The notes below the pieces were generated by a model. It was not told the origin of the DNA and searched no databases. It was given only the letters and a program-made list of their open reading frames with translations. The position numbers and the translations under genes are program-made. 64,000 bases of DNA from Prorocentrum cordatum. Taxonomy: Eukaryota. The DNA is taken from NCBI GenBank assembly GCA_963575745.1, contig CAUYUJ010000313.1, positions 1-64,000 on the forward strand. Direction: 5' to 3'. Below are positions 3,516 to 32,326 of the stretch, in pieces (position 1 is the stretch's first letter; each line of letters begins with the position of its first letter).

Positions 3516-3585
<70 letters not shown>

Positions 3586-3601: not shown

Positions 3602-3648
<47 letters not shown>

Positions 3649-3829: not shown

Positions 3830-3860
<31 letters not shown>

Positions 3861-3896
3861 GACTACTACTACTTGTACTGCTACTACTGCTGATAA

Positions 3897-3935
<39 letters not shown>

Positions 3936-3936
3936 G

Positions 3937-3977
<41 letters not shown>

Positions 3978-4110
3978 CACGACTAGTACTGCCAGTGTCA
4001 TTAGGATTACGACTACTCCGACGGCCACGACGACTACGACGAGTAGTGGTAGTACGACTACCACTACTACTGCTACTCACACTACTACTACTACTACTAC
4101 TACTACTACG

Positions 4111-4151
<41 letters not shown>

Positions 4152-4180
4152 CACTACTACTACTGCTACTACTACTACGG

Positions 4181-4245
<65 letters not shown>

Positions 4246-4277
4246 GACCTACTACTACTACTACTACTACTACTACG

Positions 4278-4339
<62 letters not shown>

Positions 4340-4403
4340 GACTACTACTACTACTACTATTACAACGACTACTACTACGACTACTACTACTAGTACTAGT
4401 ACA

Positions 4404-4443
<40 letters not shown>
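1..4443. repeat. (ACT)n/(CTA)n microsatellite array, degenerate
   Basis: Continuous ctactacta with scattered ACG/GCT/CCA variants; source of the poly-V/T/L/Y/S ORFs. Confidence 0.98.

Positions 4444-4446
<3 letters not shown>

Positions 4447-5411: not shown

Positions 5412-5412
<1 letters not shown>
4444..5412 (-). mobile_element. Composite non-autonomous element, copy 1, inserted in (ACT)n; internal 12-bp TCGATCTCACWA and 9-bp GGGACACCR satellites
   Basis: Shares an identical 28-bp end (CTATACGACCCACCCTTCGGGTGATAAG) and a ~120-bp opposite end (CCCACGCAGCTTCGCCTCGCCCGC...CTCCGA) with 7354-8222; flanked on both sides by (ACT)n. Strand inferred from Helitron-like ends. Confidence 0.6.
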
Positions 5413-6375
<963 letters not shown>

Positions 6376-6820
6376 ACTCCGAAATCCCGAGAACAATGTT
6401 TTGGCATGCTTCAAGGTCTTCAAACGGTTGTCTTCCAACGAGGCAGTTCCCTCAATGGAATTGAACCGTTGTAGGGGCTTAAGAAGAGGGAGCTTGGAGG
6501 GAGGGTTAATTCCAACATATTTGACGACTCTTGGGTTTACACTGGTCCTCCTCCTCCTCCTCCTCCTCCTCCTCCTCCTCCTCCTCCTCCTCCTCCTGCT
6601 CCTGCTCCTCCTCCTGGTCCTTCTACCTCCCTCCTCGTTTCGATGCGGTTTCCGTCATCGAGGATCCCTCGGGGATCCCTCGGGGATCCCCTCCCCCGCA
6701 CGGGCGGGCGGGCCGTGCCCCACGGGGGGCACGCTGCGGGCCTCGAGGCTGTCCGCGAGGCCGAAGACGGGCCGCACCTCCTGGAGCGGTGCGCGCTGGG
6801 AGGAGGGGCCGGGCTCACGG

Positions 6821-12918: not shown

Positions 12919-14640
12919 CGCAAGATTCTTATAAATTCTGCCAAATCCAACGATTTCATGTCAGCGCGCAGTGCCCGCGATACTCCTGTCATGCGCCGAG
13001 GGCGCGAATCCTTTGCAAAAAAAACACAGCGCGGGCCACGTGCGCGCACCGCCGCGCGCGCATGATCAGTCTGACGGAATTGTTGAACCTTGTCAGCATC
13101 ACCGCGATCACCTGCCTCATCGCCACATGGACATCAGCATCGTTCGTGACGTCACCCTTTTGAACATCGTCGCTGGCGCCATCTTCGTCACTGTCGCAAA
13201 CGTTGCCGACGTCATCTTGTCATCGCGACCGTCCGAGTATCGTCGATATGCCCACCTTCATCGTCGACTCGCGGTGACGAGCATCGGCAGTGAGGATGTT
13301 ACCATCGATGTCGTCATCGGTGGCGCCACCGCCCCCCGCATCATGAGTTTTGCCAAACAAGTTGCGGGTGGGAGGGTGGGACGTTTGCGCGAGCAGTGGA
13401 GATGACGATTTCAAGTTCAGCAGAGTGGATTGCCACACATAGATTCTCCGCTCGAAAAAAAATCGGTTCTACCACCCTCCCCCCCCAGACTTATCGACTC
13501 CCCGGGAACCGATGCAAAAAACATATGATTCTGACCCAATGTCCATCCTACCTGTGAAGTCATACTGTCCCTGCCAGGCTGGTATCGGTACCCCCCGCCA
13601 TCCCTCGCAAAAAATACGATGCGCGCACAATCGTTGATCAAAAACCTTTTCAAACATCCCATGTAAAAATTTGACGAAATGCACACGCGCGCGTCGTCGC
13701 GCGCGCATGCCGGAATCCTTCAAAAAACCATCGGTTTCGACAGGATTTCAAAATCGAGCGTCCCAAAAAATAACGTAAAAACCACCAGGTTTCGCACACG
13801 GATGTTCAACAAAAGCGTGCGCGCGCTCTCTTGCGAATTCTCAACAAAATAATAAGTTTCTCAACACGTTCATAAAATGCTAACAAACGGGCTTCGCGCG
13901 CGCATGGCGAAATCGTTATGAAAGCCCTTGCGCGCGCGCTGGGGTGGCACGATCCGTGTCGAACAATACCATGCGAGCCACTCTCGCGCGTCTGCCGCGC
14001 GCGCATTTCCAATTCCTTCCAAAACCTTCATCACCGACGCGAAGGCGCCGTCATCGTCGTCGGCGCGATCAGCATCGGAGCCGTCACTGGCTGCCCCGTC
14101 GTCGCTGTCAGCATCGTCACCAGCATCGCTACTACCATCATCGTGTCTTCTATTGTCGACGTTGCCATGATACCGCGCCCGCCCAAGTCGCCGACTCGCA
14201 CGGAAGTGCCCGATGGGATGTGCCGAACGGCCAGCGCCACCGCGTTCGCGTCGGTCGCGCCAAACTAGCTGGCCGCTGCGCGCGCGAGCATGCGCGGCCG
14301 CAGAGATGCACCAGCCAACACCCAGCACTCATCGCAATCGCTCCCGCATGGGTTCTGCACACCAAGTTGCGCGTGGGTGGGTGTGATGATTGCGCGAGCA
14401 GTGAAATTCAGAACTTCAAGCTCGGCAACTGAATTGCAAAACATAAATTGCACCACATATATGTGGCCCCAGATAGACTGCACAACAAAGATTGCGCGAC
14501 ATAGGTTGCATCACACAGATTGCGCAACATCTGTAGCACCACATGTGCTGCACCACATACCCTGCACAACATGCATAACACCACATACACTGCACCCTAG
14601 CATTTGCCCCATATAGAATGCACAACATGGGGTGTACAAA
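11712..14640 (+). repeat. Dispersed CG-palindrome repeat family, two near-complete units plus a partial one
   Basis: 11890-12390 and 13975-14460 are clearly homologous (…CACCGACGCGAAGGCGCCGTCATCGTCGTCGGCG…ATACCGCGCCCGCCCAAGTCGCCGACTCGCAC…); further copies at ~39190, ~40185 and ~42940. Confidence 0.8.
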
Positions 14641-14707
14641 AAATAATGCACCAACAAAAAAACAAACAAACAAAACGCCTCAAAGAGAACACCCTGACAT
14701 ATTGGAA

Positions 14708-15000
14708 CCGGGTCGAAGGGGGGGGGGGGGGCAACACATTGACCGCCCCTAGAGAAACGGAGGGAGGGCCTGGACACCAGCCTCCTTAATGGGGGGGGGT
14801 CGAACCGGGGCCCCCCCCCCGTGTCCAAAGAAGAAGAGGGGATTCGAACAGGGGGGGGGGGCTGAAACGCTAAGGGGGGTTCGAACCAGGGAAGCCCCCC
14901 CACCCACCCACCCGTGTCCCACGGAAGGGGGGGGGTCGAACCTGGGGGGGGCCACCCCCCCTGAAGTGCGCGGGGGGGGGGTCGAACTGGGGGGGCCTGA
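14708..15000. repeat. G-run minisatellite with repeated GG(T)TCGAAC core
   Basis: About six GnTCGAA(C) units separated by G and C homopolymers. Confidence 0.7.
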
Positions 15001-15318
15001 GCTGCATGGGGAGGAAGGTTCAAAGCAGGCCCCCTCCCCCAATGTGCGCGTCGTCGTCGTCGTCGAGCCTGGTCAGGGCGCACGCTGACATTGTTTACAA
15101 ATCCGTAGGTCTGGCGCGTGGGCGCCAGATCCACGGATCAGGCAAGATACCCCCCGAAACATGAGGCCAATGCGGCTTGATTTGGCGATGGAACGCGCCG
15201 ACTCCGTATGGAAACAGGACCCGTCGCTAACCCACGCGCCTTAATCCATGGTTGCGTCTCCCTGACTCTGGCGATCCGCACAGCCAGAAAAAGTGCGCTT
15301 CGCACCCGCCGCTCTGAG

Positions 15319-15581
15319 CTCCTCCTCCTCCTCCTCCTCCTCCTCCTCCTCCTCCTCCTCCTCCTCCTCCTCCTCCTNNNNNNNNNNNNNNNNNNNNNNN
15401 NNNNNNNNNNNNNNNNNNNNNNNNNNNNNNNNNNNNNNNNNNNNNNNNNNNNNNNNNNNNNNNNNNNNNNNNNNNNNTCCTCCTCCTGCCTCCTCCTCCT
15501 CCTCCTCCTCCTGCCTCCTCCTCCTCCTCCTCCTGCCTCCTCCTCCTCCTCCTCCTCCTCCTCCTCCTCCTCCTCCTCCTC
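15319..15581. repeat. (CCT)n microsatellite spanning a 100-N scaffold gap (15378-15477)
   Basis: Direct inspection. Confidence 0.97.
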
Positions 15582-15603
15582 TCCGTAGCCATTTTGGCTC
15601 AAG
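15582..15603 (+). other. Complete dinoflagellate spliced leader (DinoSL) at the 5' end of LINE 1
   Basis: Exact match to DCCGTAGCCATTTTGGCTCAAG; not followed by a GT/GC donor, so not an SL RNA gene. Confidence 0.97.
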
Positions 15604-15767
15604 TCCGTAGCGTGGCTCAGTGGCCACCAGCGGGCGAGAGTTGAGGCAGAGGGGACCAGCGGCCCCTACCGACATACCACCCAAGGTTTCGCTACGGCAT
15701 TGGGGTGTTATCCCCCGCTGTACGAAGACACGACTACTTCGTTTTCGCTCTCTGTTACTTCAGGCAC

Positions 15768-16817
15768 ATGGGAAAAGGCGCTTTCTCTTGGTGCACGGCC
15801 TGCGGCAATTGGGCCTACAATTTCAGAATCAGGAGGAATGGCGGCAAGTGCGGGAAGTGCCAGGCCCACATCTCTCTTCCCGCGCCGTGGTGGGAGCAGC
15901 CAGGCCAGCAGCAGGGCCAGCAGCACCACCACCAGCCATCCTCTCCTTCGACGGCTACGCCAGACCCGTCGGCGATGCTGGCCTTGCTCGCCAGCTTGCC
16001 GATGTTCGCGGGTGAGGCCAAGACGCTCCTCGCCGCCAAGGAGCGTTGCGACGCGGCAGCCGTGCCGACGCCGCCCACGGCCCACACCTCCTACACCGCC
16101 ACCGCCAAGGAGCTTGAGAAGAAGGACGCAGCGCTCAAGTCGGCGGCCGAGGCGGTTGTGGCAGCGGAGGCCACCCTGGCACGTGCCCAGCAGAGGGCCG
16201 AGGAAGCCACGGTGGCCCAGATCGTCGCGCAGCAGGCCCATGACAAAGCGGTCGCTGCTGTCGCGGCCAAGGCAAACATCAAGCAGGTCCCCGACGGGTA
16301 CACTGCAGACGGCAAGCGCGTGGTCTTCGCCGTGGACGACGCGCTCTTCTCCGACCTCAGCGAGTTCGACGAGACGCAGCAGGCCGAGCTCCGCGCGTTC
16401 GAGGCGGAGATCAAGCAGAGGATCGACCAGGTGGCGGCGATGCAGGCGGAGGTGCACGCGCAGTACGACAAGGTGCGCGCCCTCCGCAACTCCCCGCCGA
16501 AGCGCCAGCGGGTCGACGAGGAGGGAGGCGCCGCCGCGCCCGCGGCAGGCGCTGCCGCAGCGGCTCCCGCAGAGCCGGCGGCAGCCGCAGCCGCCGCCGC
16601 CCCTCCTGCCGCCGACCCTGGCGCCGCGGTCTCCGCCCAGGCCAAGGAGGACGGCCTCATGGCGGCCCTCGCCAAGGCCCGCTCCGACTCTGTGGCCAAG
16701 GCGAAGGGCAAGGGCTCGGCCAGTGCTTCGAGCGCTGGCCCTGGCGCTGCTGGTGCTGCTGGCAGCGCCCCTTCTGCCGCTGCTGGGGCCGCTGGCCCTG
16801 CCCCAGCCCGCGGGTAG
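15768..16817 (+). CDS. LINE ORF1 protein (349 aa): N-terminal C-x2-C-x15-C-x2-C zinc ribbon, Ala/Glu/Lys-rich coiled coil, PKRQR NLS-like motif, Ala-rich tail
   Basis: MGKGAFSWCTACGNWAYNFR...GGKCGKC, DGYTADGK and EFDETQQAEL are conserved in ORF1 of element 2; strong GC3 codon bias. Confidence 0.85.
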   Translation: MGKGAFSWCTACGNWAYNFRIRRNGGKCGKCQAHISLPAPWWEQPGQQQGQQHHHQPSSPSTATPDPSAMLALLASLPMFAGEAKTLLAAKERCDAAAVPTPPTAHTSYTATAKELEKKDAALKSAAEAVVAAEATLARAQQRAEEATVAQIVAQQAHDKAVAAVAAKANIKQVPDGYTADGKRVVFAVDDALFSDLSEFDETQQAELRAFEAEIKQRIDQVAAMQAEVHAQYDKVRALRNSPPKRQRVDEEGGAAAPAAGAAAAAPAEPAAAAAAAAPPAADPGAAVSAQAKEDGLMAALAKARSDSVAKAKGKGSASASSAGPGAAGAAGSAPSAAAGAAGPAPARG

Positions 16818-16896: not shown

Positions 16897-19800
16897 ATGG
16901 CGGGGTCTCCCCAAACTCAGAGAGATGACGAGCAAGGTTCCGACTCCAAGCTCTTCTTCGCCAACATCTCCGAGTGGGGCCCCACCGCGAAGGGCTTCAT
17001 GAGAGGCCAGGCGCCCTCCTACGACCTCGTCGCGTTCTGCGAGACGCACGTCCTAGGAGAGCAGCTGGCCACCGCCAAATCCGATCTTGGCAAGGACGGG
17101 TGGAAGGTGACGGCCACCCCTGCAGTATTGACTGGAAGGTCTGATGCTGGCAACACAGGTGGAGAATGGGTAGTCTCGCGCAAGTCAGTCTGCACCACCT
17201 CCTTCGAGTCCTGGCGCCAAGCAGAACTTCAACGCACAGGTAAAGATTGTTTCCGAGGATTCGCTCCTCTCTTGTGGCACACGCGCGTCGGCAACATAGC
17301 GGTTGTCTCCTGTTACTTGCTTCCTGGCCACAAGTTCAAGGGCCCGAACGAGCAGATGCTGATCCGCCTTGCCTCGTTCTTGAAGCAGATCAAAGATCCC
17401 TGGATCCTGGTTGGCGACTGGAATGCGGTTCCGTCTGATTGGGCCAAGACTGCCTGGATCTCCAAGCTCGGGGGCAACATCTGCGTGCCCATCAACGGCC
17501 AGGTCACGTGTAACAAGGGCCGCGGCTCCCTCATCGACTACGCGATCGTGAAGGAGGGCCTCGCCGACAGCATCCGTGTGCATATTGTCCCTGAGGTCCC
17601 ATGGCGTACGCACGCTGGGATATGCGTCACGCTCAAGGCGGGCAAGAAGGCGCGGTGGCATCGCAGCCTCAGAGCCGCCCAACCTCTGCCGGCACTCCCG
17701 AGGCCTGTCCGCGCGGCTGACCCGAACAGCAAGCGGCAGAAGGCCATCGCCCAGGCGAAGCAGCGCCGCCGCCAGGAGCTCGACGACTACCTGCAGGAGG
17801 CGTACGCCGACCTCTACGACCACGATGAAGCCCCTCCAGCACCAGCTGCAGGACCTGCGTTCAACATCCCCTTGGCGTGCTGGCAGGCCGCCAAGGACAA
17901 GCCGTACGAAGGCGCCCCCGCACATCGGCCTCATTTCCTGCTCGATCGGGATCCCGAAGTACGTGACGATGTTGGCCTACGCTACGGGCGATGGGTCCAA
18001 GCAGTGGAGGAGGCAACGATAGCACACCACGAGCTTCCAGCAGGTGATGCCAAGAAGTGTCGTGGCAGGGCACAAGGATACGATATTGAATGGAAAATCA
18101 CGCGAGCCACCCCGTCCAGGCCCCACTTGAGAGATCCGCTACTCGAATGGTGGAACCTGTGCACGTCACTACTCTCGAGATTGGGCATCTTCCGACGGAC
18201 GGCTCGAGCTCACGACAACGCCTACACGATGACCAAGCTCCTCGAGTTGCTGGACGTTGGCCTGGACAGCGACTTCCAGAAGCCCTTCGGCGACGACGAC
18301 CAGTTCTGGACCTGGGTTGCGGCGATCCAGCAGATTGGCACTGCCGACGATGAGGATTTCGACACCATACTCCAGCAGGCGGAGTCCTACAAGAGCAGAG
18401 CCATCGGCCTCTCGTTGTCCAAGGCTCGCAAGGGATTCCAGGCCTGGGCCACCAAGATGTGGAAGGAGTCGCCAGGAATTCTACACCGCCACGTGAAAGG
18501 GGTACCTGACAAGCCCGACGAGATCATTGCTGACTCCAAGGTCTTCGCCGCCCCTGATGAGATGATGGACAAGCGTGCAGATGATTGGAACGAGATATGG
18601 AGCGACGACACGATGGTCCCTGCCAAGATCATCGACGGCCTCCAGTACGTCATGGACAGGGCCGACACCCAGGACCTCGAGCAGCTCACCGCCGAGCGCA
18701 TGAACAGCGCGCTGGGCTCCATGAGTGGCAAGAAGGCCAAGGGTGTCGACGCCATGGGCCCCATCGAGGTGCAGCGGCTGCCTGCTGAGGCCCGCCAGGA
18801 GCTGCTCGAGCTGGTGAAGCACATCGAGCGCGTCGCCATGTGGCCGCACCAGCTCTTCATGGTGATCGCCGCCGTCGCCCCCAAGCCGAAGGGGGGCGAC
18901 GGGATCCTGGGCCTGCTCCCGTTCCTGCCCAAGTTGTGGAGCAAGATGAGAAGTGCTGACTCCCTGGACTGGACGGTGGCCATGGACGAGCATTGGGACA
19001 CAGCGATCCGTGGCTCGTCTGCCCTGCAGGCTGCCTTGGTCCGATCTCTCCTCGATGAGACCTGCCAGGAGATGAAGATTTCATGTGCTACCTTGCTCCT
19101 GGACTTGGAAAAATTTTATGATAGTATTTCGATTGCCAAGATGTGTGCAGCAGGTGTTCGCCAAGGTCTTCCTGCTCTCATCCTCGCGCTGGAGTTGCAG
19201 CTGTTCCTTGCCCCGCGGCACCTCAAGGACAGGCTCTGGCTGAGCAAGGCGATTCAACCTGAGAAGAGTCTAGTGGCAGGCTCGCTGCAGAGTGGACGCT
19301 TCGCGAAGGCGTTCATGGGCCCCATGCTGGACAGGGCCCACATCAACTACGGGCTCAGGATCCTACTCCGCACCTTCGTTGACGACACGGTGGTTCGGGC
19401 AGAGGGGACAGCGCACGAGGTCGGCTCGCTGATGATCGACTCCTGCACGTCCTTGGCCAGCGACTTCGTGGACGCAGGGCTCAAGATAAGCCCGAAGACG
19501 GTGGTCGTTGCTTCGTCCTCGAGCTTGGCAGCCCGAATCACTGCCGGCCTGATCGATGTTGACATCCCTGTGACACCTGTCCGCCACGCTGTGGACCTCG
19601 GTGCTGACACGACCTCGGGCCGATCACGGACCAAGAAGCGCACCTCCGCCATCATGAGGATGAGGCGCCACGCCAGCCTCCGCGGCATCACCAAGGGCCT
19701 CTGGAGCATGGGGTCCAAGCCGCAGGGCACCTACACGCACCAGACGTTCGGGATCCCCGGCTACGAGCTGGTGCAGATCCGCCGCCAGGCCGCCCAGAGT

Positions 19801-20991
19801 GCCGTCGGCACGGGGCCTGGCCGATGTTTGACCACGTCGCTTGCCGCCGCCTTTGACCGACGAGACCCAGCGAAGGCACTTCGACGTGAGCAGGTCCTGG
19901 CATGGCTGCGATTGTGGCGAGAGTACCCAGAATATCACACACGTATTGCGAGATCGTGGGATAGCATCCGTAGCCGCCTACGATTAGCGGGTTCGCGAAG
20001 ATGGAGAGTTTCGAAGGGCCCCATTGCAGCTACGATTTCAACCTTGCTCGACATTGGTTGGGACCCCGTTAGCCCGATGGTGTGGTCTTCGGATGAGCAG
20101 TTCGAGTGGCACATCCCGTCTGTGGCGCCCCCAGAGTTCGACAACTTCCACGGAGACTTCACGGACATCCTTGATGACATTGAGGCCACGATTGACAGAC
20201 AGTTGTGGCGTGCGGCGGCCCTCCACGAAGCTGCCTCGGACCTCTCGGAGGGCGCGGACATGTACCACGTCTCCAGGGAGCTCAGCCGCCTCAAGCCAGA
20301 CCTCGAGGGCGACAACTGGGCGTTGGACGTGGTGGTCGTCACGGGCGCCCAGTGGACTCGTGAGCGCTTGCGCGCGGCAGGCTACCGTATTGATGGCCTC
20401 TGCCCCCGCTGTTCCAAAGCCCCCGAGGATTTGTACCACCGAGCGTGGGCCTGCGAGGCCAATGTTGGCCATGAAGATTTCGAGAAGAGCCAGGTTTTGG
20501 CCGAGAAAGCCCGGGTGAACCATGAGAGCTGCCCGAGTTTTTGGCTCCGCGGGGTCCCTGGCCGGGCCGAAACGGTCCCGACCTTCGCGGATAAGCCTCC
20601 CATCCGAATTTCGTTTGGCACCCTTGCAGCCGTTCCCAGAGACGCCGAAGGTTTTGTGACCTTGTTTGGGGACGGGTCGGGTGGGAGGTTCTCGGACGAC
20701 CCTCGGCGTCGAAGGGTCGGCTCGGGTCTGATCGGTCTCGCCCCCGAAGGGGCTGTCTGGCGTGCCGTCTGTGGTCTGGGCTGCAGCATCGAGGGCCGAA
20801 GACAGACCGTGCCGCGCGCTGAGATAACCGCCTTCGCCGAAGCCCTTGAATCCAGCGATGGCGACGTCCGTTTCGTTACTGACCATCGCCCCCTCCTGGA
20901 CTCCTGGACCAAAGGCTTCTTCTTTTTTTTTTTTTTTGTTTCTGATCGTTTTCTTGGGGTGGTCATAATGTCTGAGGCCTGCCGAGCATGA
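16897..20991 (+). CDS. LINE ORF2 polyprotein: APE endonuclease, reverse transcriptase, CCHC-like knuckle, N-terminal part of RNase H; disrupted after ~20915
   Basis: APE motifs ANISEWG, AFCETH, VGDWN, LIDY; RT motifs PKPKGG, LLDLEKFYDSI, FVDD (19375-19386); CPRC...HRAWAC; RNase H GDGSGG, VPRAE, VTDH. The start ATG is inferred; the frame is open from 15700. Confidence 0.92.
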   Translation: MAGSPQTQRDDEQGSDSKLFFANISEWGPTAKGFMRGQAPSYDLVAFCETHVLGEQLATAKSDLGKDGWKVTATPAVLTGRSDAGNTGGEWVVSRKSVCTTSFESWRQAELQRTGKDCFRGFAPLLWHTRVGNIAVVSCYLLPGHKFKGPNEQMLIRLASFLKQIKDPWILVGDWNAVPSDWAKTAWISKLGGNICVPINGQVTCNKGRGSLIDYAIVKEGLADSIRVHIVPEVPWRTHAGICVTLKAGKKARWHRSLRAAQPLPALPRPVRAADPNSKRQKAIAQAKQRRRQELDDYLQEAYADLYDHDEAPPAPAAGPAFNIPLACWQAAKDKPYEGAPAHRPHFLLDRDPEVRDDVGLRYGRWVQAVEEATIAHHELPAGDAKKCRGRAQGYDIEWKITRATPSRPHLRDPLLEWWNLCTSLLSRLGIFRRTARAHDNAYTMTKLLELLDVGLDSDFQKPFGDDDQFWTWVAAIQQIGTADDEDFDTILQQAESYKSRAIGLSLSKARKGFQAWATKMWKESPGILHRHVKGVPDKPDEIIADSKVFAAPDEMMDKRADDWNEIWSDDTMVPAKIIDGLQYVMDRADTQDLEQLTAERMNSALGSMSGKKAKGVDAMGPIEVQRLPAEARQELLELVKHIERVAMWPHQLFMVIAAVAPKPKGGDGILGLLPFLPKLWSKMRSADSLDWTVAMDEHWDTAIRGSSALQAALVRSLLDETCQEMKISCATLLLDLEKFYDSISIAKMCAAGVRQGLPALILALELQLFLAPRHLKDRLWLSKAIQPEKSLVAGSLQSGRFAKAFMGPMLDRAHINYGLRILLRTFVDDTVVRAEGTAHEVGSLMIDSCTSLASDFVDAGLKISPKTVVVASSSSLAARITAGLIDVDIPVTPVRHAVDLGADTTSGRSRTKKRTSAIMRMRRHASLRGITKGLWSMGSKPQGTYTHQTFGIPGYELVQIRRQAAQSAVGTGPGRCLTTSLAAAFDRRDPAKALRREQVLAWLRLWREYPEYHTRIARSWDSIRSRLRLAGSRRWRVSKGPIAATISTLLDIGWDPVSPMVWSSDEQFEWHIPSVAPPEFDNFHGDFTDILDDIEATIDRQLWRAAALHEAASDLSEGADMYHVSRELSRLKPDLEGDNWALDVVVVTGAQWTRERLRAAGYRIDGLCPRCSKAPEDLYHRAWACEANVGHEDFEKSQVLAEKARVNHESCPSFWLRGVPGRAETVPTFADKPPIRISFGTLAAVPRDAEGFVTLFGDGSGGRFSDDPRRRRVGSGLIGLAPEGAVWRAVCGLGCSIEGRRQTVPRAEITAFAEALESSDGDVRFVTDHRPLLDSWTKGFFFFFFFVSDRFLGVVIMSEACRA

Positions 20992-21309
20992 GTCGGGTTT
21001 TGAATAGCAGCGGGGAGCAGCGGGGGAGTGTTTGCGAATATTAGATCCTTTGGGCCAGGATTCCAGGCCGCCAAGCGTGATCGTGGGTCACTGGCCCCGA
21101 ATAGAATAATTGTAGTTTTTCTTTTTTTTTTTTTTTTTTCGGGTCCCTCCCCACCAAGAGGAGATAGGAGGACTTCCCATCTATTACATCTATCTCTTCC
21201 TCTCTCGCGTACGCAGTTGTTTTTTTTTCTATCTTACAAAAAAAACCTCGGGACATTGAAATCAATTATATCTAAATAGAATTTTTTTTATTATATGAAT
21301 TGAGCAGAA

Positions 21310-22000
21310 GACGCCTTGGCCAGCGAAGCTGCCGAGCTTAGCTGGACTGAATTCGTGATTTCGCCCCCCCCCCAGACCGATGTTCGGGACTCCGAGGCCG
21401 CCCTGGTCCGTCGGAGGGCGCGGAGAGCCCTGGCAGCGAGCATCCAAGCCGATCCCTGGACCTGCGAGCGCCCTGGAATCGAGGGGGGGGGCCCGTTACC
21501 TAAGCTTGCCTGTGCCCTGCGTGACTCAGAGCATTCGTGGTCCCGTGCAGGGACGAAGTATATATGTAGGCGTTGCAATTTGTTCTCGAATCAGGATTCG
21601 ATTTTCCAAATGTGTGCCTCCCGTTGCAGGCCCGGGCAGACGCCCGACTTCTCCCCCGTTCGTGCTGCGCTTTTGCGCTTTTCCTTTCTGTTTTCTTCTC
21701 TTTTGTTCGGTGGTTTCTGTCGGGGTTAGGGTAGAGGGTAGATGAGTAGGTAGTTTGATTTTTCGTTTAGAGAGCTTCCAGGGGCGCACCACTCTGCAGA
21801 AGAAGATGCGCATATAAATTGGTTTTCTGCACGACTTGCGGCAAGTCGTGCACCACCGACCCGAGATGGTTGGTCTTGCGATGTAATCCAACGGCCAAGG
21901 GCCGTCAGAATCTGGCGGCCATCAGGTCGGGGCGGTATCCGCACCCGTCGGGACCGCCAAGAGCGGTGAGAGAGGCGGAGTCACAAGGACTTGTTGGCCT
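21310..22000 (+). pseudogene. Fragmented C-terminus of element 1 ORF2 (end of RNase H and two zinc-finger-like motifs)
   Basis: DSEAALVRRRARRALAASIQADPW and FCTTCGKSCTTDPRWL...YPH align with element 2 (DAEAALVRRRARRALVASILADPW; FCTVCGKTATSDPRWL...YPH); interrupted by T-rich patches. Confidence 0.85.
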
Positions 22001-22186
22001 CGGTGCAAGGGGGGGTGGAACGGCCCAGACGACGTCGACGAGTGGTCGCGTTCCACCCCCCGAGGGAGTGGCTCATGTTGCCACTTCCGAGGGTTAAAAC
22101 TGAGGCCTCAGTTTTAACCCTCATGCGGTCCATGGCGCCGTTTGTGGACGTACGCTGTCCTTTCATCTGATCGCTCCTGATCGCTC

Positions 22187-22460
22187 CTCCTCCCTCCTCC
22201 TCCTCCCTCCTCCTCCTCCTCCCTCCCTCTCCCTCCCTCCACCACCTCCTACTCCTCATCCTTCCCTCCTCCCTCCTCCCTACTTCCTACCTCCTCCTCC
22301 TCCTCTCCTCCTCCCTTCCTCATCCTCTCCTCCGCCTCCTCCATCCTTCCTCGCCTCCTCCTCCTCTCCTCCTCCTCCGCCCTCCTCCTCCTCCTCTCCC
22401 TCTCATCCTTGCTCCCTCCTCCTCCTCCTCCTCCTCCTCCTCCTCCTCCTCCTCCTCCTC
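22187..22460. repeat. Degenerate (CCT)n polypyrimidine tract between the two LINEs
   Basis: Almost purely C/T; becomes perfect (CCT)n next to the second SL. Confidence 0.95.
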
Positions 22461-22482
22461 TCCGTAGCCATTTTGGCTCAAG
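22461..22482 (+). other. Complete DinoSL at the 5' end of LINE 2
   Basis: Exact TCCGTAGCCATTTTGGCTCAAG, followed by ATG rather than a splice donor. Confidence 0.97.
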
Positions 22483-22631: not shown

Positions 22632-23694
22632 ATGGCGCCGCGCCCATTCTCCTGGTGTACTTGCGGCAACTGGACCTACAACTTCCGCCTGCTGCACAAC
22701 GGCGGGATGTGCGGCAAGTGTGGGGCGCAGGTCACACTATTCCAGCCCGACGCTGCAGCGGCGAAAGGCAAAGGTAAAGGAAAGAAAGGCATCCTGGGCA
22801 ACAAGGGCGGCAAGGGCGAGGCTAAGTCGGCTTGGAACAACACTGGAGGAGGCAAAGGAGGCCCTTACCCGTGGTCCAAGGAGCCTGACGTCTCGCAGAT
22901 GCTCGCCATCCTCTCGAACGTCCCCGCCCTCGCGGCGCACGCCGACGTGTTCCGCCAGGCTGACATTTCCTTCAAGGCGAGCAAGGCGAAACCGGTGTCG
23001 CCCAACCAGGAGGTGTACCGCTGCAGCCAGACGTTGGAGAAGAAGGAGATGGCGCTCCAGAAGGCCTCGGCAGGACGTCGTCAAGCTGGAGTCGGCTCTC
23101 CAGGAGGCGAAGCTGTGGCTGCACCAGACGGCGGAGGAGGCCCTCTCCGCAAAACGGGCCCACACCATGGCTGTCAAGGCCCTCGCGGACTCCACGGGCG
23201 CCGCCAAGACGCAGGACGGCTACACCGCAGACGGCAAGAAGATATACCTGGCGTTGGACGAGTTCGACTTCGCAGCCAGCGACGAGTTCGACGACACCCA
23301 AAAGGCGCAGCTCCAGGCCATCCAGAAGCAGGTGGAGGAGCACTGCAAGCAGGTGGCGGACCTCCAGAAGACGATGCAGGAGGCGCTCAAGAGCGTCAAG
23401 GAGATCCGCGCAGCCCCAGCGAAGCGGCAGCGTGGCCAGGACGGCGCCGCCCCTGGCCCAGGCGCAGCCGAAGCCGAGGGCCCTGACGAAGACCAGGCAC
23501 CTACTGCAGCGGAGGACGGCCCCAGCTTCGCCGTCTCAGAGAGCGACATCGCCGCCAAGATCGCGAGCGCCAGGGAAGCCACGCTGGCCAACATGGGCGA
23601 CTTCCCTCCCCTGGGCACTGGCAATGGTGCTAGGGGCTCTCGCGATGGTGCGCCCAGACCTGCAGCAGCGGCAGCGGCCGCGCAGCGAGGGTGA
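22632..23694 (+). CDS. LINE ORF1 protein with one frameshift near 23070
   Basis: Frame 22632 gives MAPRPFSWCTCGNWTYNFR...GGMCGKC...LEKKEMALQKAS; homology continues in the 22483 frame (QDVVKLESAL...DGYTADGKK...PAKRQR...QRG*). Confidence 0.82.
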
Positions 23695-26600
23695 CCTACT
23701 CAACGGAGTCGGAGGAGGCGGCCACTCGCGACTAGGCGGCGCTACCGCTCAGCCGCCCCTCCCACAGTATGCGGCGAGTAGCGACACACGGGCTCCAGTT
23801 CCAGAGAACTACGACGCGACGTACTTCCTCTCGAACATCTCGGAGTGGGGCCCGCAGGCGGAGGGATTCATGAAGGCCCAAGCTGAGCAGTACGACGTGA
23901 TAGGCTTCGCGGAGATGCACCTGCGAGGCGTGAAGATCCTGGACTTCACCGAGAAGATCAGCAAGGACGGCTGGAAAGCCGCCGTCACAGCCGCAGCACC
24001 GTCGGGCCGATCGACTGAGGGCACGACGGGCGGCGAGGCGATCATATCCAAGCGCTCACTGGCCACGACGTCGTTCGAGGGGTGGCGCAAGCACGAGATA
24101 GAGCGATCGGCAGTCGACCCTTTCCAAGGCTTCTGCCCCACGACGTGGCACACGAAGGCAGGCAACATAGTGGTCATCTCCGCGTACATGCAGCCGAAGC
24201 ACGGCATGAAGGGCGCCAACGAGAAGATGATGATCAAGTTAGCCAGCTTCATCAACATGATATCCGACCCGTGGGTTGCCCTGGCCGACTGGAACAACCC
24301 ACCAGAGGCATGGGCTGGAACCAAGTGGCTTCGCAAGATTGGCGGCCAGTTGATCCTCCCTGAGAACACGAAGACCACGTGCAACCTGGGGTGCGGCTCC
24401 CTCATCGACTACGGGGTCTGCAAGAGCGGGTTCGGCGGCTCCCTCAAGCTCGAAGCCGCGCCTGAGGTCCCCTGGAAGACCCACGTGGGCCTCCTGCTCT
24501 CTATACGTGCGGGGAAGCAGCACTGGTGGCACCGAGCTATGCGGATACCGAAGCAGCTCCCGTCGGCGGGACGACCAGTGAAGAAAGCGGACCCGAACAG
24601 CAAGCGCCAGAAGTCGATGGTCGAGCGGCGCCAGCGCGCAAAGGCCAGACTCCAAGAGGAGCTCCAGGAAGCCTACGAAGAGCTCCACAGCTGGCCGACC
24701 ACGGCGGACACTGACAGCAACGACTCGGTGACTTTCGACATTCCGCTCGAAGTATGGCGGGCCGCAGCCGCCACGGTGGCAGGCCTGGGAGAGGACAATG
24801 AGGGTAACGAGGTGAAGGAAAAGTACGCCGATTCGAGCAATTCCCCCTCCTCCCACTTCCTGCTGACCCGCGACCCCGAGGCGCAGGAGCAGGTCGCCAG
24901 AGCGTTCGGCGACTGGGTGCAGACAGTAGAGAAGGCCACGCTCAAGCACCACGACATCCCCGAGACCGACTGGAAGCAGTACGAAGGCAGGGCCAGCGAG
25001 TACAAGATTACCTGGCGCAGGACCCGTGCTGCCCCAGCCCGCGCACATATGCGGGATCCGATGCTGGAATGGTGGCACTTGGCCACGGCGATCATAGCCA
25101 GATATCAGTTAATGAGGCGCAAGTTCTCGGAGCAGGACTATATGCGCATGGCAAACAGGATGAAGGAGCTGCTGGACGCTGCCACCGACAACAACTTCCT
25201 CGCCAAGTATACGGAGCCAGATGACAAGAGGGTCCTAGATGACTGGACCAAGGCCATTGCCGAATTGAACGGGCAGCACATCGACGCGCTCCAGGGCCTC
25301 CTGGAGATCGGCCTGAGGTTCCAAGCCCGTGCGGTGGGCATAGGACTCGCCAACGGCAGGCGGGCTTTCGCCAGTTGGGTCACTCGCATGTGGAAGCAGG
25401 CTCCAGGTGTGCTTCACCGACATGTGAAACCAGCTGCCTCTCGGCGAGACGAGCACTACGGGGACGCGGGCAGCACCTACGCCACGCCGTGCGAGATCAT
25501 GGACCGCCGCGCCGACTATTGGGAGAACGTCTGGTCCGACTCCGGCGCCGACCCCAAGAGTATCCTCGACGGCCTGAAGTATGTCGCGGAGCAGGCCAAG
25601 AGGGAGGACGTTCACCCGCTCGAGCTGGAGCACCTCGACCACCTGCTAGCGAAGCAGAACCCGAAGAAGGCCAGAGGCATTGACAACCTCGGCCCGCTGG
25701 AGGTGCAACGACTTCCAGAGCCAGGACGCAGACAGATGCTGGAAGTCCTCAACCTCTGCGAGAAGCACCTCATGTGGCCTTACCAAATCTACACGGTCAT
25801 AGGCGCGGTCGCCCCCAAGCCGAAGGGAGGCGACAGGATCCTGGGGTTGCTCCCGTACACGATGAAGGTGTGGTCCAAGCTCCGTTACCCGTTGAGCGAG
25901 AGGTGGAGCGACAGGCTTGGCGAGTTCTGGGACACGGCCATCAAGGGAAGTAGCCCGCTGCAAGCCTCACTGGCGAGGGCCTGCATGGACGAGTGCTGCT
26001 TCACCATGGGCATCAGCTGCGCGACCATCCTTCTAGATTTGGAGAAGTTCTACGACAGCATCTCCATCACAAAGCTCTGCCAGGCCGGCCTGAGGCAGGG
26101 CTTCCCTGCAGTCATCCTCGCGATGGAGCTCCAGATCTTCCTCGCCCCGCGATACTTGAAGGAGCGCCAGTGGATCAGCAGGCCGATCAAGATCGGAAAG
26201 CCGCTAGTGGCAGGATCCCCACACGGCGGCAAGTTGGCGAAGGTTCTCTTGGGCCCCATCCTCCAGCGCGCCCACGACAAGTACCAGTTCAGCATCATGA
26301 TGAAGACGTTCGTGGACGACACGATCATCCGCAGCGAGGGCACGTCCAGCAACGCGGAGACCACTCTGGTCCAAGCTGGCACCTCCATCGGCCACGACAT
26401 GCAGCTCGAGGGCCTCACGATCAGCCCCAAGACAGTCGTGGTCGCCAGCACGAGCAGCATCGCCAACAGAGTGGCACGAGCACTTCGGAGAAAAGGCATT
26501 CGGGCCACCTCGGCCCAGGCTGCCGCGGACTTGGGGGCCGACGTTGCCTCGGGACGGGCTCGCGCCAGGGCCACAGCACGCAGGCGAATGGTGAAGGCTA

Positions 26601-28653
26601 GCAGACGGTCCGCAGCCATTCACAGAATCAGGAGAATAGCCCGATTAAAGAGAGAATCGCAAGGTCTATGGAGAACGGGTGCCATGCCGTCTGGGACCTA
26701 CTCACACCAGCACCACGGGCTTCCTGAATACGAAGTGCTACGCCTCCGACGTCAAGCTGCTGCAGCCGCCTCTGGCGTGGGACCAGGGAGATGCTTGACG
26801 ACTGCCCTGGCCATCGAGTACGGCGACGACGACCCCGCTAAGAGTACCAGGCGACAGCAGATAGCAGCGTGGTTGACCATGTGGCGCCAGTGCCCAGGCA
26901 TCCATGACAGGATTCGGCAATCCTGGGACAAGATCCTCGACCGCATACGGAAGGCGGGCCAACGCAAGTGGAGGATCGTCCGAGGCCCAGCGGGAGCAAC
27001 CATAGCCACCCTCCTCGAGATTAACTGGGACCCGATCTCGGCGACTCAGTGGGGCACGGACGCTGGCAAGAGTTGGCTGATCCCAGCAAGAGAGGACGAG
27101 GGATCAAGAAGCTGAACGCGGACTACTCGGAGATCTTCAGCGATATCAACAACTCAGTGGACAGAATTCTCTGGACTCGGGCTTCGAGACATGAAGCAGG
27201 TAACGACCTCCACAGCGGAGGAGATTTCAGCATGATCAAGCAGGAGCACCGCCGTTTCGCCAACAAGGAGCAGCACAGCGAGATCGCGCTCAACACGGTG
27301 GTCACGACGGGCGGCCAGTGGACACGTACACGGATGGCTGCCGCAGGATACGAAGTTTCCGCAACTTGCCCGAGATGTGGAGATCAAGATGAATCTATTT
27401 TCCACAGAATATGGACGTGCGCAGCCAACTGCGACCACGACGACTTCACGGACAGCGACTTCCTCACCGCACAGGCGTTCGCGAACCACGAGGCCTCCCC
27501 GTCTTTCTGGCTCCGCGGCGTCCCCGCGGCAGCTGACACTATACCCGTCTTCGACGAGACCCCACCCATCACGGACAGCTTCGGGGACATCTCGAGGATC
27601 CCACGCGACGAGGAGGGATTCGCTGAGATTTTCGGAGACGGGTCGGGCGGTGAGCATAGCAGTGACTGGCGCCGCAGACGCGCGGGCTTTGGTTTTGTTT
27701 CTCTGGCCCCTGGTGCTCTGGACCCTATCGTTGGTGTTTCGTCTTCCCTGGAAGGGCGGGTCCAGACGGTCCCGAGGGCCGAGCTCTCTGCTTGTCTCGC
27801 CGCCCTGGAGCGAATCCCAGGGAAGATCCGATATATGACGGACCACCTGGCCCTGGCCCAGGCCTGGTCCAAAGGAGTCCCGCTCCTCCTTGCCTCCTCG
27901 TCCCCTCCCGCGAACGTCGACCTTTGGACCAGGATCCTGGAGGCTGCGGGAGATAGAGTCATTCGCGTAGTGTGGATCCCTGCCCACGTTGAGGCCAGGG
28001 ACGTGAATACCGAGGAGGCCCTTCGCAATGCTGTAGGCAATGCGTGTGCTGACGCACTCGCGGGCCTAGGAGCCCAGGCGAGCCAACGGTGCCGTCTCAC
28101 GAATCCCGACACCGACCGCCGCGATGCCGAGGCCGCCCTGGTCAGACGACGGGCTCGGAGAGCTCTGGTCGCGAGTATCCTTGCCGATCCCTGGACCGCG
28201 ACTCGGCCCGAGGCCCCTGTGGCCCAGCGTCTCCCCATTCTGACCAGGAGTTTGCGAGCCAGCGAGCACCAGTGGCGGAAGGTTGGTGCGAAGTATTTCT
28301 GCACGGTCTGTTCCCAGTTCGAAACCAGGGAGTCAAATCGAGAAGGGTGCCAGTCAAGGTGCTGCCCCAAGCCCCAGGGCCAGGGCATCTCACCGCTTCG
28401 CGGCCCCCAGATTGTGTCGGGGAAGCTTTTGTGTTCGAGCCACAAGCTCTCCTTCTGGGGCCGCTTTGGATTAACGTTTTGCACGGTGTGTGGCAAAACT
28501 GCCACGTCCGACCCAAGGTGGTTGGTAGACAGATGCAGGGCCTCCCCCAAAGGTGCGCAAAACCTCGCGAGGATCGCCCGAGGTTTATATCCGCATGTGG
28601 GGGGGCCCCCGCAGCACGTTCGGGACGCCGAGATTTCCAAATTCGTCCAGTAA
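23624..28653 (+). CDS. LINE ORF2 polyprotein (APE, RT, CCHC-like, RNase H, C-terminal zinc fingers) with one frameshift near 27100; start uncertain
   Basis: SNISEWG, GFAEMH, LADWN, LIDY; PKPKGGDRILGL, LLDLEKFYDSI, FVDD (26309-26320); CPRC...HRIWTC; complete RNase H motif set GDGSG / RAE / TDH / WIPAH / GNACADALA. Confidence 0.92.
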
Positions 28654-28809
28654 CTCGTCTGGCTTTGATCCAGTTTTCTTGGGGGCTCTGCTGGTGGCGT
28701 AAATGGCAAAGTGATGCGACGCCCTTCGGGAGGCCAGTAAAAGATCACGAGCGCCATCCAGCAGGGCTCCCCGGAGACATAAGACGGAGGCGAACTGGCG
28801 TTGGTGTCG

Positions 28810-29340
28810 CAAAGGAAGGAAGAGATAAATGGAATGAGGAATAAGAATGAGCAAGAAGCTGAATAAAAAGAAGGAAGAACAGAATAAAGAAGAATAAAGA
28901 ATTAAAACGAAACAGACAAAGCTAAGCAAGAAAGGAATTAGAAGACGACGAAGAAAAGAAATACAAAGAATAAGAAGACGCTTAGCAAGACAGAAGAAGA
29001 AAACAGAACGAATGAAAAGCATAAGGTAACCCGAACGAGACTGACCGACTCATCGAAAAAGTTTTAAGAGAACAAGAAGTAGAAATAACTAAGAAAGAAA
29101 AAAAAACAAAAATAAATCAACAAACACAGCATCGCGGAATAAGAACGCTAACTCAGAAAAGAAGAAGAAAAGAATAAAATAATAATGATGCATCCGCCGA
29201 CGCAATAAGCCTAAGCAGCAATCAAGACTTAATTACTAATAATAATAAAATACGAAGAAACTCAAAATAGTTAAGTAATAAAAATAATAAGCAGAACGGA
29301 AGACACTCAGAATAATACAGACGAATCAATACTAATACTA
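28810..29340. other. A-rich low-complexity tract after element 2 (degenerate tail or noisy consensus)
   Basis: GAA/AAT-rich with no stable period. Confidence 0.5.
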
Positions 29341-29469
29341 CATCATCCAGCCAAATCCTCCTAACTCCAAGAATCCTTGATCTCCTACCTACGATATAGT
29401 CACTCCACCTCCTAATAATGCAATCTAATACCTTCTCCGGACCCCCCTCCTCCTCCTCCCCCGATTCCT

Positions 29470-29658
29470 TCTCATCATCATCCGCCTCCGCCTCGTCATC
29501 CTACTAGTCGCCGTCAGCATCGTCATCGACAGCATCATCAGCAGCATCAGCATCATCAGCAGCATCAATATCGTCAGTATCAGCATCCTCATCAACAGCA
29601 TCATACTCAGCATCATCATCATCAGAATCAGCCTCAGCATCAACAGTATCAGCATCAG

Positions 29659-29723
<65 letters not shown>

Positions 29724-30841
29724 GCATCGTCATCATCAGTATCATCATCAACAACAACAGCATCATCATCAGCAGCATCACCATCATCACCAGCATCATC
29801 ATCGTCACCCGCATCATCCTCAGCCTCAGCATCAGCATCAGCGACCGCGTTATCATCGTAATCGTCGTCATCATCATCAGCAGCATCGTCATCGACATAG
29901 TCATCAGCGTCATCACCATCATCATCATCGTCATCATCATAATTAGCATCAGCAGCATCATCAGCGCCATGATCATTAGCATCATCATCAGCAGCAGCAG
30001 CATCAATTTCCTAGTCACCAGCAGCAGCAACATCATCATCCGCGCCATCAGATCAGCATCACCAGCAGCATCATCATCAGAATCGGCATCAGCATCATCA
30101 GCCTCATCATCCGCAGCATGACCAGCATCATTATCAGCAGCATCAGCAGCAACAGCATCATCAGACGCATCCGCAACAGCGACATAAGCGTAATCATCAG
30201 CACCGTCAGCATCATCAGCATCATCGGCGTCGCCGTCAGCATCGTCGCCATCGTCATCCTCAGCATCGTCAGCATAAGCATCATCACATCATTATCATCA
30301 CCATCATCAGCATCATCATCATAGACTCAATCATCAGCATCACAAACATCATCATCAGCATCATAACCATCACCATCATCAGCAACAGCATCTTCATCGT
30401 CAGATTTATTATCTGAATCAGCAGCAGCATCAGCATCATCACTCTCATCATCTGCATCATCAGCAGCATCGACATCGCCATAAGCATCAGCAGCATCAGC
30501 AGCAGCAGCAGCATCAGAAGCATCAGCAGCATCAGCATCAGCAGCAGTATCATCAGCAGCAGCATCATCAGCATCAGCATCATCAGCAGCATCGTCATAA
30601 GCAGAAGCAGCATCAACACCACCATCATAAGCATCAGCATCAGCATGATCATCAGCAGCATCGTCGCCATCATCATCAGCAGCATCGACATCATCATCAT
30701 GAGCATGAGCATCAGCATCAGCATCATCGTCATCATCATCGGCAGCAGCATCATCAACCTCATCGACATCACCCTCATCAGCATCAGCATCATCATCATC
30801 ATCATCATCATCCTCCTCCTCCTCCTCCTCCTCCTCCTCCT

Positions 30842-30872
<31 letters not shown>

Positions 30873-30906
30873 ATCATCATCATCATCATCATCATCATCG
30901 TCGTCG

Positions 30907-30956
<50 letters not shown>

Positions 30957-31251
30957 AGCATAGTCATCAGCATCATCAGCATCATCGTCATTCTCCTCAT
31001 TCTCAAAATTATCTGTCTCCTCCTCCTCCGTCTCCTCCTCATCCACCGCATCATTATCCTCCTACTCCGCCTCCTCCTCCTCCTCCGCCTCCGCCTCCTC
31101 CTCCTCCGCCTCCTTCCCTTCCTCCTCGTTCCCCGCCCCCGCATCCTCCTTTTCTTCCACCTCCTCCTCATCCTCCTCTGACTCCTCCTCATCATGAGCA
31201 TCATCATCATAACCAGCATCATCAGCATCACCAGATTCCCTCTCCTCCTTC

Positions 31252-31305
<54 letters not shown>

Positions 31306-31810
31306 CCATCACCATCACCATCACCATCACCATCAGTATTATCAGCATCATCATCAGCATCATCATCACCAGCATCATTACCATCAGCATCATCATCATC
31401 AGAATCATAATCCTGATCGTCGTCATCATCATCGTCATCATCATCATAATCATCATCCTCCTCCTCCTCCTCATCATCATCATCATTATCATCATCAGCA
31501 TCGTCACCATCATCATCATCAGCATCACAGCAGCAGCATCATCATCGTCCCCCATCATCTCCCTCCGTCCTCCCTCCCCTCCTCCTCCTCCTCTTCCTCT
31601 TCCTCCTACTCCTCCTTCTCCTCCTCCTCCTCCTCCTCCTCCGCCTCCTCCTCCGCCTCCTCCTCCTCTCATCATCATAACCGTCATCATCAGCAGCATC
31701 AGCAGTATCAACATCATCATCGTCAGCATCAGCATCACCATCATCATCCTCGTCATCCCCACCATCGTCATCATCATCAGCAGCAGCATCATCATCACCA
31801 TCAGCATCGT

Positions 31811-31844
<34 letters not shown>

Positions 31845-31918
31845 ATCATCATCACCATCATCTTCATCATCAGCAGCAGCATCATCAAGATCATCATCAA
31901 CATCATCATCATCACCAC

Positions 31919-31957
<39 letters not shown>

Positions 31958-31959
31958 GC

Positions 31960-32007
<48 letters not shown>

Positions 32008-32172
32008 GCATCATCATCGTCATCATCATCATCCCATCCCTCCTCCTGCTCCTCTTCCTCCTCCCTCCTCCTCCAATTCCTCCTCGTCCTCCTCCTCCTC
32101 TTCCTCTCCCTCTCATCATCGTCATCATCATCAGCATCAGCATCATTATCATAAGCATCAGCATCGTCATCG

Positions 32173-32205
<33 letters not shown>

Positions 32206-32221
32206 GCATCATCATCATCAT

Positions 32222-32264
<43 letters not shown>

Positions 32265-32326
32265 GTCATCATCATCATCAGCAGCAGCAGCATCATCATC
32301 ACCATCAACACCATCATCATCAGCAG
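29470..32326. repeat. Compound (CAT)n/(CAG)n/(CCT)n microsatellite
   Basis: Direct inspection; source of the 799-aa poly-Met and poly-Ile/Asp ORFs. Confidence 0.97.

Follow-up and report, generated by a model that had tools for sequence, protein, structure and literature searches.

Spliced-leader-headed APE-type LINEs behind CCT repeats in a Prorocentrum cordatum contig and the probable use of the repeat as their landing site

The first 64,000 nucleotides (nt) of the forward strand of contig CAUYUJ010000313.1 (assembly GCA_963575745.1, Prorocentrum cordatum), which is the whole stretch that was analyzed and is called the window here, carry two long elements, element 1 and element 2, each of which begins with a complete copy of the dinoflagellate spliced leader (SL; DinoSL) directly behind a CCT repeat. 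They are copies of two related families of APE-type non-long-terminal-repeat retrotransposon, that is, long interspersed nuclear elements (LINEs), of a Prorocentrum-like dinoflagellate. The explanation that we consider best, with a probability of about 60%, is that these two and one remnant, element 3, are APE LINEs that target (CCT)n and whose SL-capped RNA is copied in full. The positions of all features are given in Table 1.

The DinoSL, TCCGTAGCCATTTTGGCTCAAG, was found in two copies on the + strand of the window with 22 of 22 bases exact, and in 100 shuffles of the window there was not one that gave a DinoSL match at up to 3 mismatches. In both elements the + strand reads ...(CCT)15-C followed immediately by TCCGTAGCCATTTTGGCTCAAG, and the block that is identical between them, made up of (CCT)15, the C and the SL, is 68 nt long and starts at the start of the perfect repeat. 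In the 100 nt that precede each SL there are 97 pyrimidines. Given the content of the window itself, a perfect 15-nt run of the CCT type would stand before both SL sites with a chance of about 9e-6 (3e-6 if the phase is to be the same). The observation of the CCT-SL junction is confirmed and it is far from chance. A reading made earlier from the sequence alone (the sequence-only reading) had described this identical junction with the pyrimidine strand as the sense strand, which was borne out; it was also correct in placing AG dinucleotides at SL positions 6-7 and 21-22, and in stating that element 1 runs into CCT repeats at its 3' end, which lies at about 22183 and is followed by a CTC/CCT array. 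Chance and assembly artefact are ruled out for the junction of element 2, which lies in contiguous sequence. The array before element 1 contains a 99-N scaffold gap (15379-15477) that lies 104 nt upstream of the SL, and assembly may have contributed to the length of this array and perhaps also to the match of the two counts at 15 units. Both shared blocks (15536-15603 and 22415-22482) have exactly 15 perfect CCT units, and farther upstream the repeat is either interrupted by CCTG every 7-8 units (element 1) or degenerate (element 2). The equal count could be due to chance (roughly 1 in 15), to conversion between the neighbors, to polishing cross-talk by the N gap or to a repeat made by the insertion itself.

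The domains of the two elements are those of APE-type LINEs. In open reading frame 2 (ORF2) of element 1, which overlaps ORF1, residues 39-222 matched PF03372 (Exo_endo_phos) with 29.9 bits against a cut-off of 24.5, and a region homologous to this APE domain is present in element 2. For PF00078 (RVT_1) the score of element 2 was 33.3 bits against a cut-off of 29.6 and that of element 1, at 21.7 bits, was below the cut-off; PF00075 (RNase_H) was above the cut-off in element 2, and the RNase H region of element 1 is disrupted from about 20911. The APE domain lies N-terminal to the reverse transcriptase (RT) domain in ORF2, long terminal repeats (LTRs) are lacking in that no repeat of the untranslated regions (UTRs) of the elements was found elsewhere in the window, and there are a 5'-truncated copy and a structured 3' end. 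The mark of a DinoSL-tagged retrocopy, a DNA-encoded DinoSL directly at the 5' end, was found twice. The ORF2 proteins of elements 1 and 2 are 45.9% identical over 1106 amino acids (aa), which makes them two families of one clade. The closest database protein to ORF2 of element 1 is 97% identical and has Prorocentrum cordatum as its source label, and ORF2 of element 2 is 86% identical to P0003, an intact protein of 1645 aa from a different data set. All of the nearest Atlas clusters had RVT_1, Exo_endo_phos or RNase_H and were unnamed APE/RT/RNase H clusters only. A PDB sequence search with the element proteins gave no match, the zinc-ribbon matches of ORF1 were all below the Pfam cut-offs, and neither the 5' leader nor the rest of the window gave a match to a tRNA or to any known RNA family, ribozyme families included. 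Elements 1 and 2 are dead copies, full-length but broken.

The CCT repeat is found at copies with and without a leader. Element 3 is an old and degenerate relative on the - strand that has no SL, and the (TCC)n in front of it is the only (AGG)n run of at least 6 units on the + strand of the window. A sense-strand CCT-type array lies at, or within 100 nt of, the 5' boundary in 3/3 relatives in the window. The Logan contigs of four public runs were compared with element 1, with 15552-15592 excluded as repeat, and none of them extended past either end of the stretch compared. One copy, 5'-truncated at 21976 and present in runs X1 and X4, has CCT-rich ...TTCCATTCCTCCTCCTCCTCCTCTTCCT in front of it. 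Since copies without an SL also lie behind sense-strand CCT, the repeat fits a landing site rather than a signal that goes with the leader. Element 1 is flanked by the repeat on both sides. In all, a flanking repeat in the same orientation was seen on the 5' side of 3/3 window copies and one contig end, and on the 3' side it is clear for element 1 only. The earlier proposal that (CCT)n is an orientation-specific insertion target is supported by the three window relatives, the truncated copy and the two flanks of element 1. No further relatives were found in the genome-contig and viral-contig collections that were searched.

The same comparison with the four runs bears on the structure of element 1. 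The segments that divide its C-terminal ORF2 remnants from the rest of ORF2 are missing in contigs of run X1, one of which joins across 20911-21152, 21224-21308 and 21668-21811 (T-rich runs and others), so that these segments are either private insertions or the contig represents an alternative form of the element 1 copy. In runs X1, X4 and X8 there are 30 extra bases at 19631-19633. Contigs on element 1 have loose ends at 22090, 22123, 22130 and 22132, and the perfect 34-nt palindrome GAGGGTTAAAACTGAGGCCTCAGTTTTAACCCTC (22089-22122) has loose ends on both sides and several different flanks, one of them (CGA)n-like, in all four runs. This palindrome looks like either an independent dispersed module or a 3' hairpin common to many families. 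The X1 word depth in the last 220 nt of element 1 was 215, compared to about 33 over its body, and the dispersed palindrome in that bin may contribute to the difference.

A probable course of events is as follows. The RNA of the element would be SL trans-spliced like other dinoflagellate mRNAs and then reverse-transcribed to its very 5' end, a step for which the leaders at the element heads argue strongly, and because reverse transcription would reach the RNA's 5' end each new copy would carry the SL in its DNA. The endonuclease and target-primed reverse transcription would insert the copies into (CCT)n.(AGG)n in one orientation and in one phase, directly after ...CCTC on the top strand. The flanking repeat would then be the footprint of the target, and elements 1 and 2 would be successive insertions in one array. 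The simplest account of how a single SL is kept up would be that a few master copies are amplified and that the acceptor AG lies at the boundary of the element; a possible, unproven variant of this is that the genomic SL is spliced again at its terminal AG.

An exact-SL scan of metagenome contigs gave at least 121 stretches, and 109 non-redundant sites had at least 18 nt of upstream sequence. A simple repeat abutted the SL at 22/109 of these sites, among the matches listed, compared to 5/170 control positions 200 nt away (4/60 and 1/110; Fisher p 3.5e-6). On contigs of metagenome-assembled genomes 3/7 SL sites abut a simple repeat, which gives a pooled count of 25/116 among the matches listed. 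The motifs by the SLs were (TA)n, (CA)n, (TCA)n, (CT)n, (GA)n, (TAC)n, (GGGT)n, (GACA)n and others, and (CCT)n was not among the matches listed. When 64 of the 95 downstream ORFs were scanned with Pfam (the 31 shortest were omitted), 16/64 matched ordinary host families, again among the matches listed. Two unrelated SL-headed host-gene retrocopies, of an inner membrane complex (IMC) protein (L058) and of arginine kinase (L066), both lie directly behind a satellite of the GATCATAT type, which suggests one repeat-specific machinery that mobilizes passenger mRNAs. Many of the SL-headed downstream ORFs begin with CX2C...CX2C motifs like ORF1 of elements 1 and 2. When six pieces of the element proteins were compared with 122 SL loci by tblastn there were 0 matches at E <= 0.01, and the best E in a phmmer search with ORF1 over 480 downstream ORF pieces was 0.039, by which homology is not shown. 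A small family of SL-headed CX2C...CX2C ORFs (L092, L112 and L122; L092 and L122 are 73% identical) was found always after (CA)n, and the 5' UTR motif CAGCGGAGCATTG is common to these three and to L016, which follows a GGT-type repeat. To judge by these sequences, it looks like family-specific repeat targeting in which passenger mRNAs may be carried along.

Several points weigh against (CCT)n targeting as set out above. The count is of only three copies from a single 64-kb window and of the end of one contig. Empty sites were not seen. A target-site duplication is unreadable because both flanks are the same repeat. The 3' flank of element 2 is A/G-rich with only decayed CCT-like sequence behind it, and the boundary of element 3 is not exact. 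The 15 perfect units by both SLs, next to degenerate repeat farther up, could mean that the repeat was made by the insertion or carried by the element. CCT arrays are common in the window (about 10) and most of them have no recognizable element after them. The enrichment of simple repeats at SLs elsewhere is weakened when only the upstream control is used (22/109, among the matches listed, vs 4/60), and some of the (TA)n-like repeats may not be microsatellites but AT-rich promoters of viruses.

The rival explanation that survives best, although we consider it unlikely, is the one that the sequence-only reading had put forward, namely that the repeat supports a self-regenerating trans-splice acceptor. 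Here (CCT)n would be the polypyrimidine tract, read-through RNA would be spliced at the terminal AG of the genomic SL (positions 21-22), the old SL would be swapped for a new one, the 5' end would be exactly restored and every copy would be a potential source. A pyrimidine tract and two AGs are present at both junctions, as it requires. A comparable situation was described for the PCP gene by Bachvaroff and Place in 2008, where a genomic SL that matches in 21/22 bases lies exactly at the RNA's 5' end, the same option is named and the choice of acceptor AG is flexible (PMC2488372). The first AG after the tract, however, is that at SL positions 6-7, which is in UAG context, whereas the terminal AG is in AAG context, and relics truncated at AG 6-7 are the published norm (PMC5585692, PMC7245778, PMC12014239). 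Among the matches listed, such 15-nt relics stand behind 15/121 SL sites and, by a looser criterion that requires only a CCA start, behind 8/25 repeat-flanked SLs. Pure-pyrimidine repeats precede genomic SLs elsewhere in only 1/25 cases and purine-rich ones in 5/25, again among the matches listed. A branch-point A is absent inside the tract, and the first AG has its nearest upstream A at a distance of 271 nt in element 1 and 62 nt in element 2; and no consensus upstream of dinoflagellate acceptors is known according to the 2008 paper (PMC2488372). Taken together, these indirect signs are mixed and tend to count against such an acceptor as a general rule.

The state of the leaders themselves speaks on both sides. 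Stacked 15-nt relics, CCATTTTGGCTCAAG, were sought behind both SLs of the window and none was found, which upholds that part of the sequence-only reading, and their absence from both elements, despite families that are 46% identical in protein, favors regeneration. What has to be corrected is that element 1 does have a second leader, TCCGTAGCGTGGCTCAG, directly after its SL, of which 15/18 aligned bases match the full-length SL and which is not truncated at AG 6-7. An SL followed by a decayed full SL is the arrangement that would persist if the cycle ran through the upstream SL's terminal AG. The same decayed, untruncated SL also means that the 5' end is not always exactly restored, so that exact restoration is not constant. 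In other dinoflagellate contigs (L012, L091, L036, L071 and L098) a full SL adjoins another complete or decayed full-length SL, as in SL/TCCGTAC... and ...CAAG/SL, which indicates that a new leader can be added exactly before an untruncated old one. In L012 a decayed SL lies directly behind the SL, and in L091, which is of the same family, the SL is followed by a 15-nt relic and then by the same decayed full SL. The comparison of these two heads shows AG 6-7 in use in an SL-headed element that is built like element 1, with the same double-SL head, and this counts against renewal at the terminal AG. Finally, if both copies in the window are dead daughters of master genes, regeneration is not needed to explain them.

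A wider form of the same idea, which we regard as improbable to a similar degree, is that of a promoterless clade of dinoflagellate LINEs that would excise capped, full-length RNA from read-through transcripts by host SL trans-splicing. Because new copies would begin with an SL behind a pyrimidine microsatellite, the head would be renewed exactly by re-splicing at the terminal AG of the SL and every copy would be a potential source, and SL-headed retrocopies, both LINEs and passenger genes, would be delivered by repeat-specific LINE families.

The rivals are not all mutually exclusive with targeting of (CCT)n by SL-capped LINEs. Another of them, in our view quite unlikely, is that the CCT repeat was not there beforehand as a target but is carried or made by the element, as a microsatellite 3' tail that is lengthened by slippage of the RT, with head-to-tail arrays, and/or by template jumping onto another tail at the 5' junction. 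The 3' end of element 1 does pass directly into the repeat without an A tail, the repeat before element 2 doubles as the tail of element 1, and exactly 15 perfect units precede both SLs with interrupted or degenerate repeat beyond them. Microsatellite-like 3' tails are also known in other LINE clades (PMC6007223). However, upstream of the element 1 array (14000-15318) there is no tblastn or blastn match and nothing element-like, and the 3' side of element 2 itself is A/G-rich and not CCT. Moreover, a tail and a target are compatible models, in that LINEs with repeat tails usually also prime on the same repeat.

It is very unlikely, in our estimate, that the DNA-encoded SL itself sets the RNA's 5' end, either by a transcription start at or near SL position 1 or through a TTTT/TTTG core promoter, with trans-splicing playing no part. 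That trans-splicing is not needed is the second option of Bachvaroff and Place (PMC2488372), and TTT(T/G) in DinoSL relics has been proposed as a promoter motif that aids the survival of retrogenes (Song et al. 2017, PMC5585692). Consistent with this, the virus-classed contig L001 has two DNA-encoded DinoSL copies behind AT-rich sequence at about 1370-1530 on the - strand. On the other side, there is no promoter evidence within the window, and a TATA-like motif inside the SL would start the RNA downstream of the SL and not at its first base. RNA begun at a DNA-encoded SL would also be without the cap structure of the SL RNA.

Insertion into an SL RNA gene, of the NeSL/SLACS/CZAR type, was rejected, as there is (CCT)n upstream, CTC repeat downstream of element 1 and no GT-intron sequence after either element. 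An SL-like 21-mer at 59570-59590 on the - strand has 3 mismatches and is followed by GTATTCC, which gives it the look of an SL exon with a donor, and it was not taken as an SL gene, being inside the ORF2 remnant of element 3 (residues 466-513 of element 2 ORF2); it may be a chance match or a captured piece.

Among known systems, APE LINEs of animals that target microsatellites, Waldo in (ACAY)n, Mino in (AC)n, Kibi in (TC)n and Koshi in (TTC)n, were reportedly described by Kojima and Fujiwara in 2004. Elements 1 and 2 are like these in having APE and RT, in lying in one orientation in one simple repeat, in having the repeat on both flanks (element 1) and in their tandem insertion in one array. 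They differ in that they belong to another eukaryotic supergroup and carry the SL of the host at the 5' end, and likeness at the level of clades is not implied. NeSL-1, SLACS, CZAR and CRE are LINEs that interrupt SL RNA genes. There too a LINE is joined to SL sequence in an organism that trans-splices, whereas in the window the elements' own first 22 nt are the whole SL, CCT lies upstream and no SL intron follows the 3' end. In R2, the 5' end of a co-transcribed LINE is defined by a ribozyme like that of hepatitis delta virus (HDV). An HDV-like ribozyme, L1TcRz, is likewise reported to define the 5' end of L1Tc (PMC3383444). The likeness to R2 and L1Tc would be that a LINE without a demonstrated promoter has its 5' end defined when a longer transcript is processed; the difference is that the processing here would be host SL trans-splicing, cap included, and the window holds no ribozyme family.

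Recycled cDNAs, or retrogenes, with DinoSL relics are said to have been described by Slamovits and Keeling in 2008. Retrogenes with DinoSL relics have also been treated by Song et al. 2017 (PMC5585692) and Stephens et al. 2020 (PMC7245778). In those genes, as in elements 1 and 2, the SL found in the DNA at the 5' end points to reverse transcription of a trans-spliced mRNA. The retrocopy in the window differs in being the retrotransposon itself and not a passenger gene, and in having a complete SL with no stack of 15-nt relics. The PCP gene, which is from A. carterae, also has its nearly full genomic SL where the SL of the mature RNA lies, and the same two alternatives, re-splicing at the identical sequence or no trans-splicing, apply to it, so that re-splicing at an identical genomic SL is an idea already raised for that gene in 2008 (PMC2488372). 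Unlike the LINEs it is a host gene in a tandem array, and a microsatellite flank is not reported in the accessible text (PMC2488372). In the literature, subscription papers and supplements aside, we came upon no account of LINEs headed by an SL, of (CCT)n as a target or of DinoSL retrocopies with a bias toward microsatellites. In the parts of the sources drawn on, LINEs are named only as presumed drivers of dinoflagellate retrocopying and none is demonstrated (PMC5585692, PMC12014239).

Outside the elements the window is repeat-rich and gene-poor. Long trinucleotide arrays lie at 36-6378, 29514-32322 and 51273-51935, with (ACT)n making up about 4.4 kb and (TCA)n 2.8 kb, and there is a perfect 204-bp tandem duplication at 52896-53304 (2.0 copies, 100% identity). 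The + strand has a strong skew of C over G up to about 60 kb, after which the skew flips. When 52 other long ORFs of the window were scanned with Pfam none was above the cut-off, the only row under E 0.001 being MFS_1 with 18.6 bits against 33.4. The A/G-rich low-complexity run on the 3' side of element 2 (Table 1) is possibly a decayed A-rich tail.

Table 1. Features of elements 1, 2 and 3 in the 64,000-nt window.
Feature	Position	Strand	Remarks
(CTC/TCC)n array upstream of element 1	15319-15581	+	perfect (CCT)15 at 15536-15580, C at 15581
Exact 22-nt DinoSL, 5' end of element 1	15582-15603	+	sequence match
Decayed full-length second SL (TCCGTAGC, four gap positions, GTGGCTCAG)	15604-15620	+	15/18 aligned bases identical to SL
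Element 1 ORF1	15768-16817	+	349 aa, intact; putative N-terminal CX2C...CX2C zinc ribbon, Ala/Gln-rich middle; Pfam matches below cut-off only
Element 1 ORF2	16900-20991	+	APE endonuclease and reverse transcriptase; start at about 16900; T-rich stretch breaks the frame from about 20911 on
Element 1 C-terminal ORF2 remnants	21310-21995	+	homologous to residues 335-533 of the last ORF piece of element 2
Element 1 3' UTR	21996-22183	+	strongly structured, fold z -5.25; includes the 34-nt palindrome at 22089-22122
CTC/CCT array between elements 1 and 2	22184-22460	+	degenerate at 22184-22414 (TRF 76% matches), perfect (CCT)15 at 22415-22459, C at 22460
Exact DinoSL, 5' end of element 2	22461-22482	+	ATG directly after
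Element 2 ORF1	22632-23694	+	CX2C...CX2C head as in element 1; one frameshift near 23070
Element 2 ORF2	23432-28653	+	two frames (23432-27115, 27049-28653); APE-like region, RT, zf-RVT, RNase H
Element 2 3' side	28654-29500	+	UTR of about 140 nt, A/G-rich run of about 540 nt, about 170 nt of decayed CT-rich/CCT-like sequence, then (TCA)n; boundaries inferred
Element 3, old degenerate SL-less relative	55906-60639	-	collinear matches to the C-terminal end of APE, to RT and to C-terminal parts
(TCC)n in sense orientation of element 3	60740-60845	-	within 100 nt upstream of element 3

Dinoflagellate genomes are full of SL-tagged retrocopied genes, and the elements of this window are concrete candidates for the drivers, as they are autonomous LINEs that bear the tag themselves. 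The tag on the LINEs strongly suggests that their RNA was trans-spliced and copied full length, and the site at which they land is apparently repeat-specific. If the association of SLs with simple repeats (25/116 among the matches listed) is confirmed in whole genomes, it would tell where retrogenes land and why, and it would link microsatellite content to retroposition. Were the reading of a promoterless clade true, the spread of retrogenes would be tied to the microsatellite landscape.
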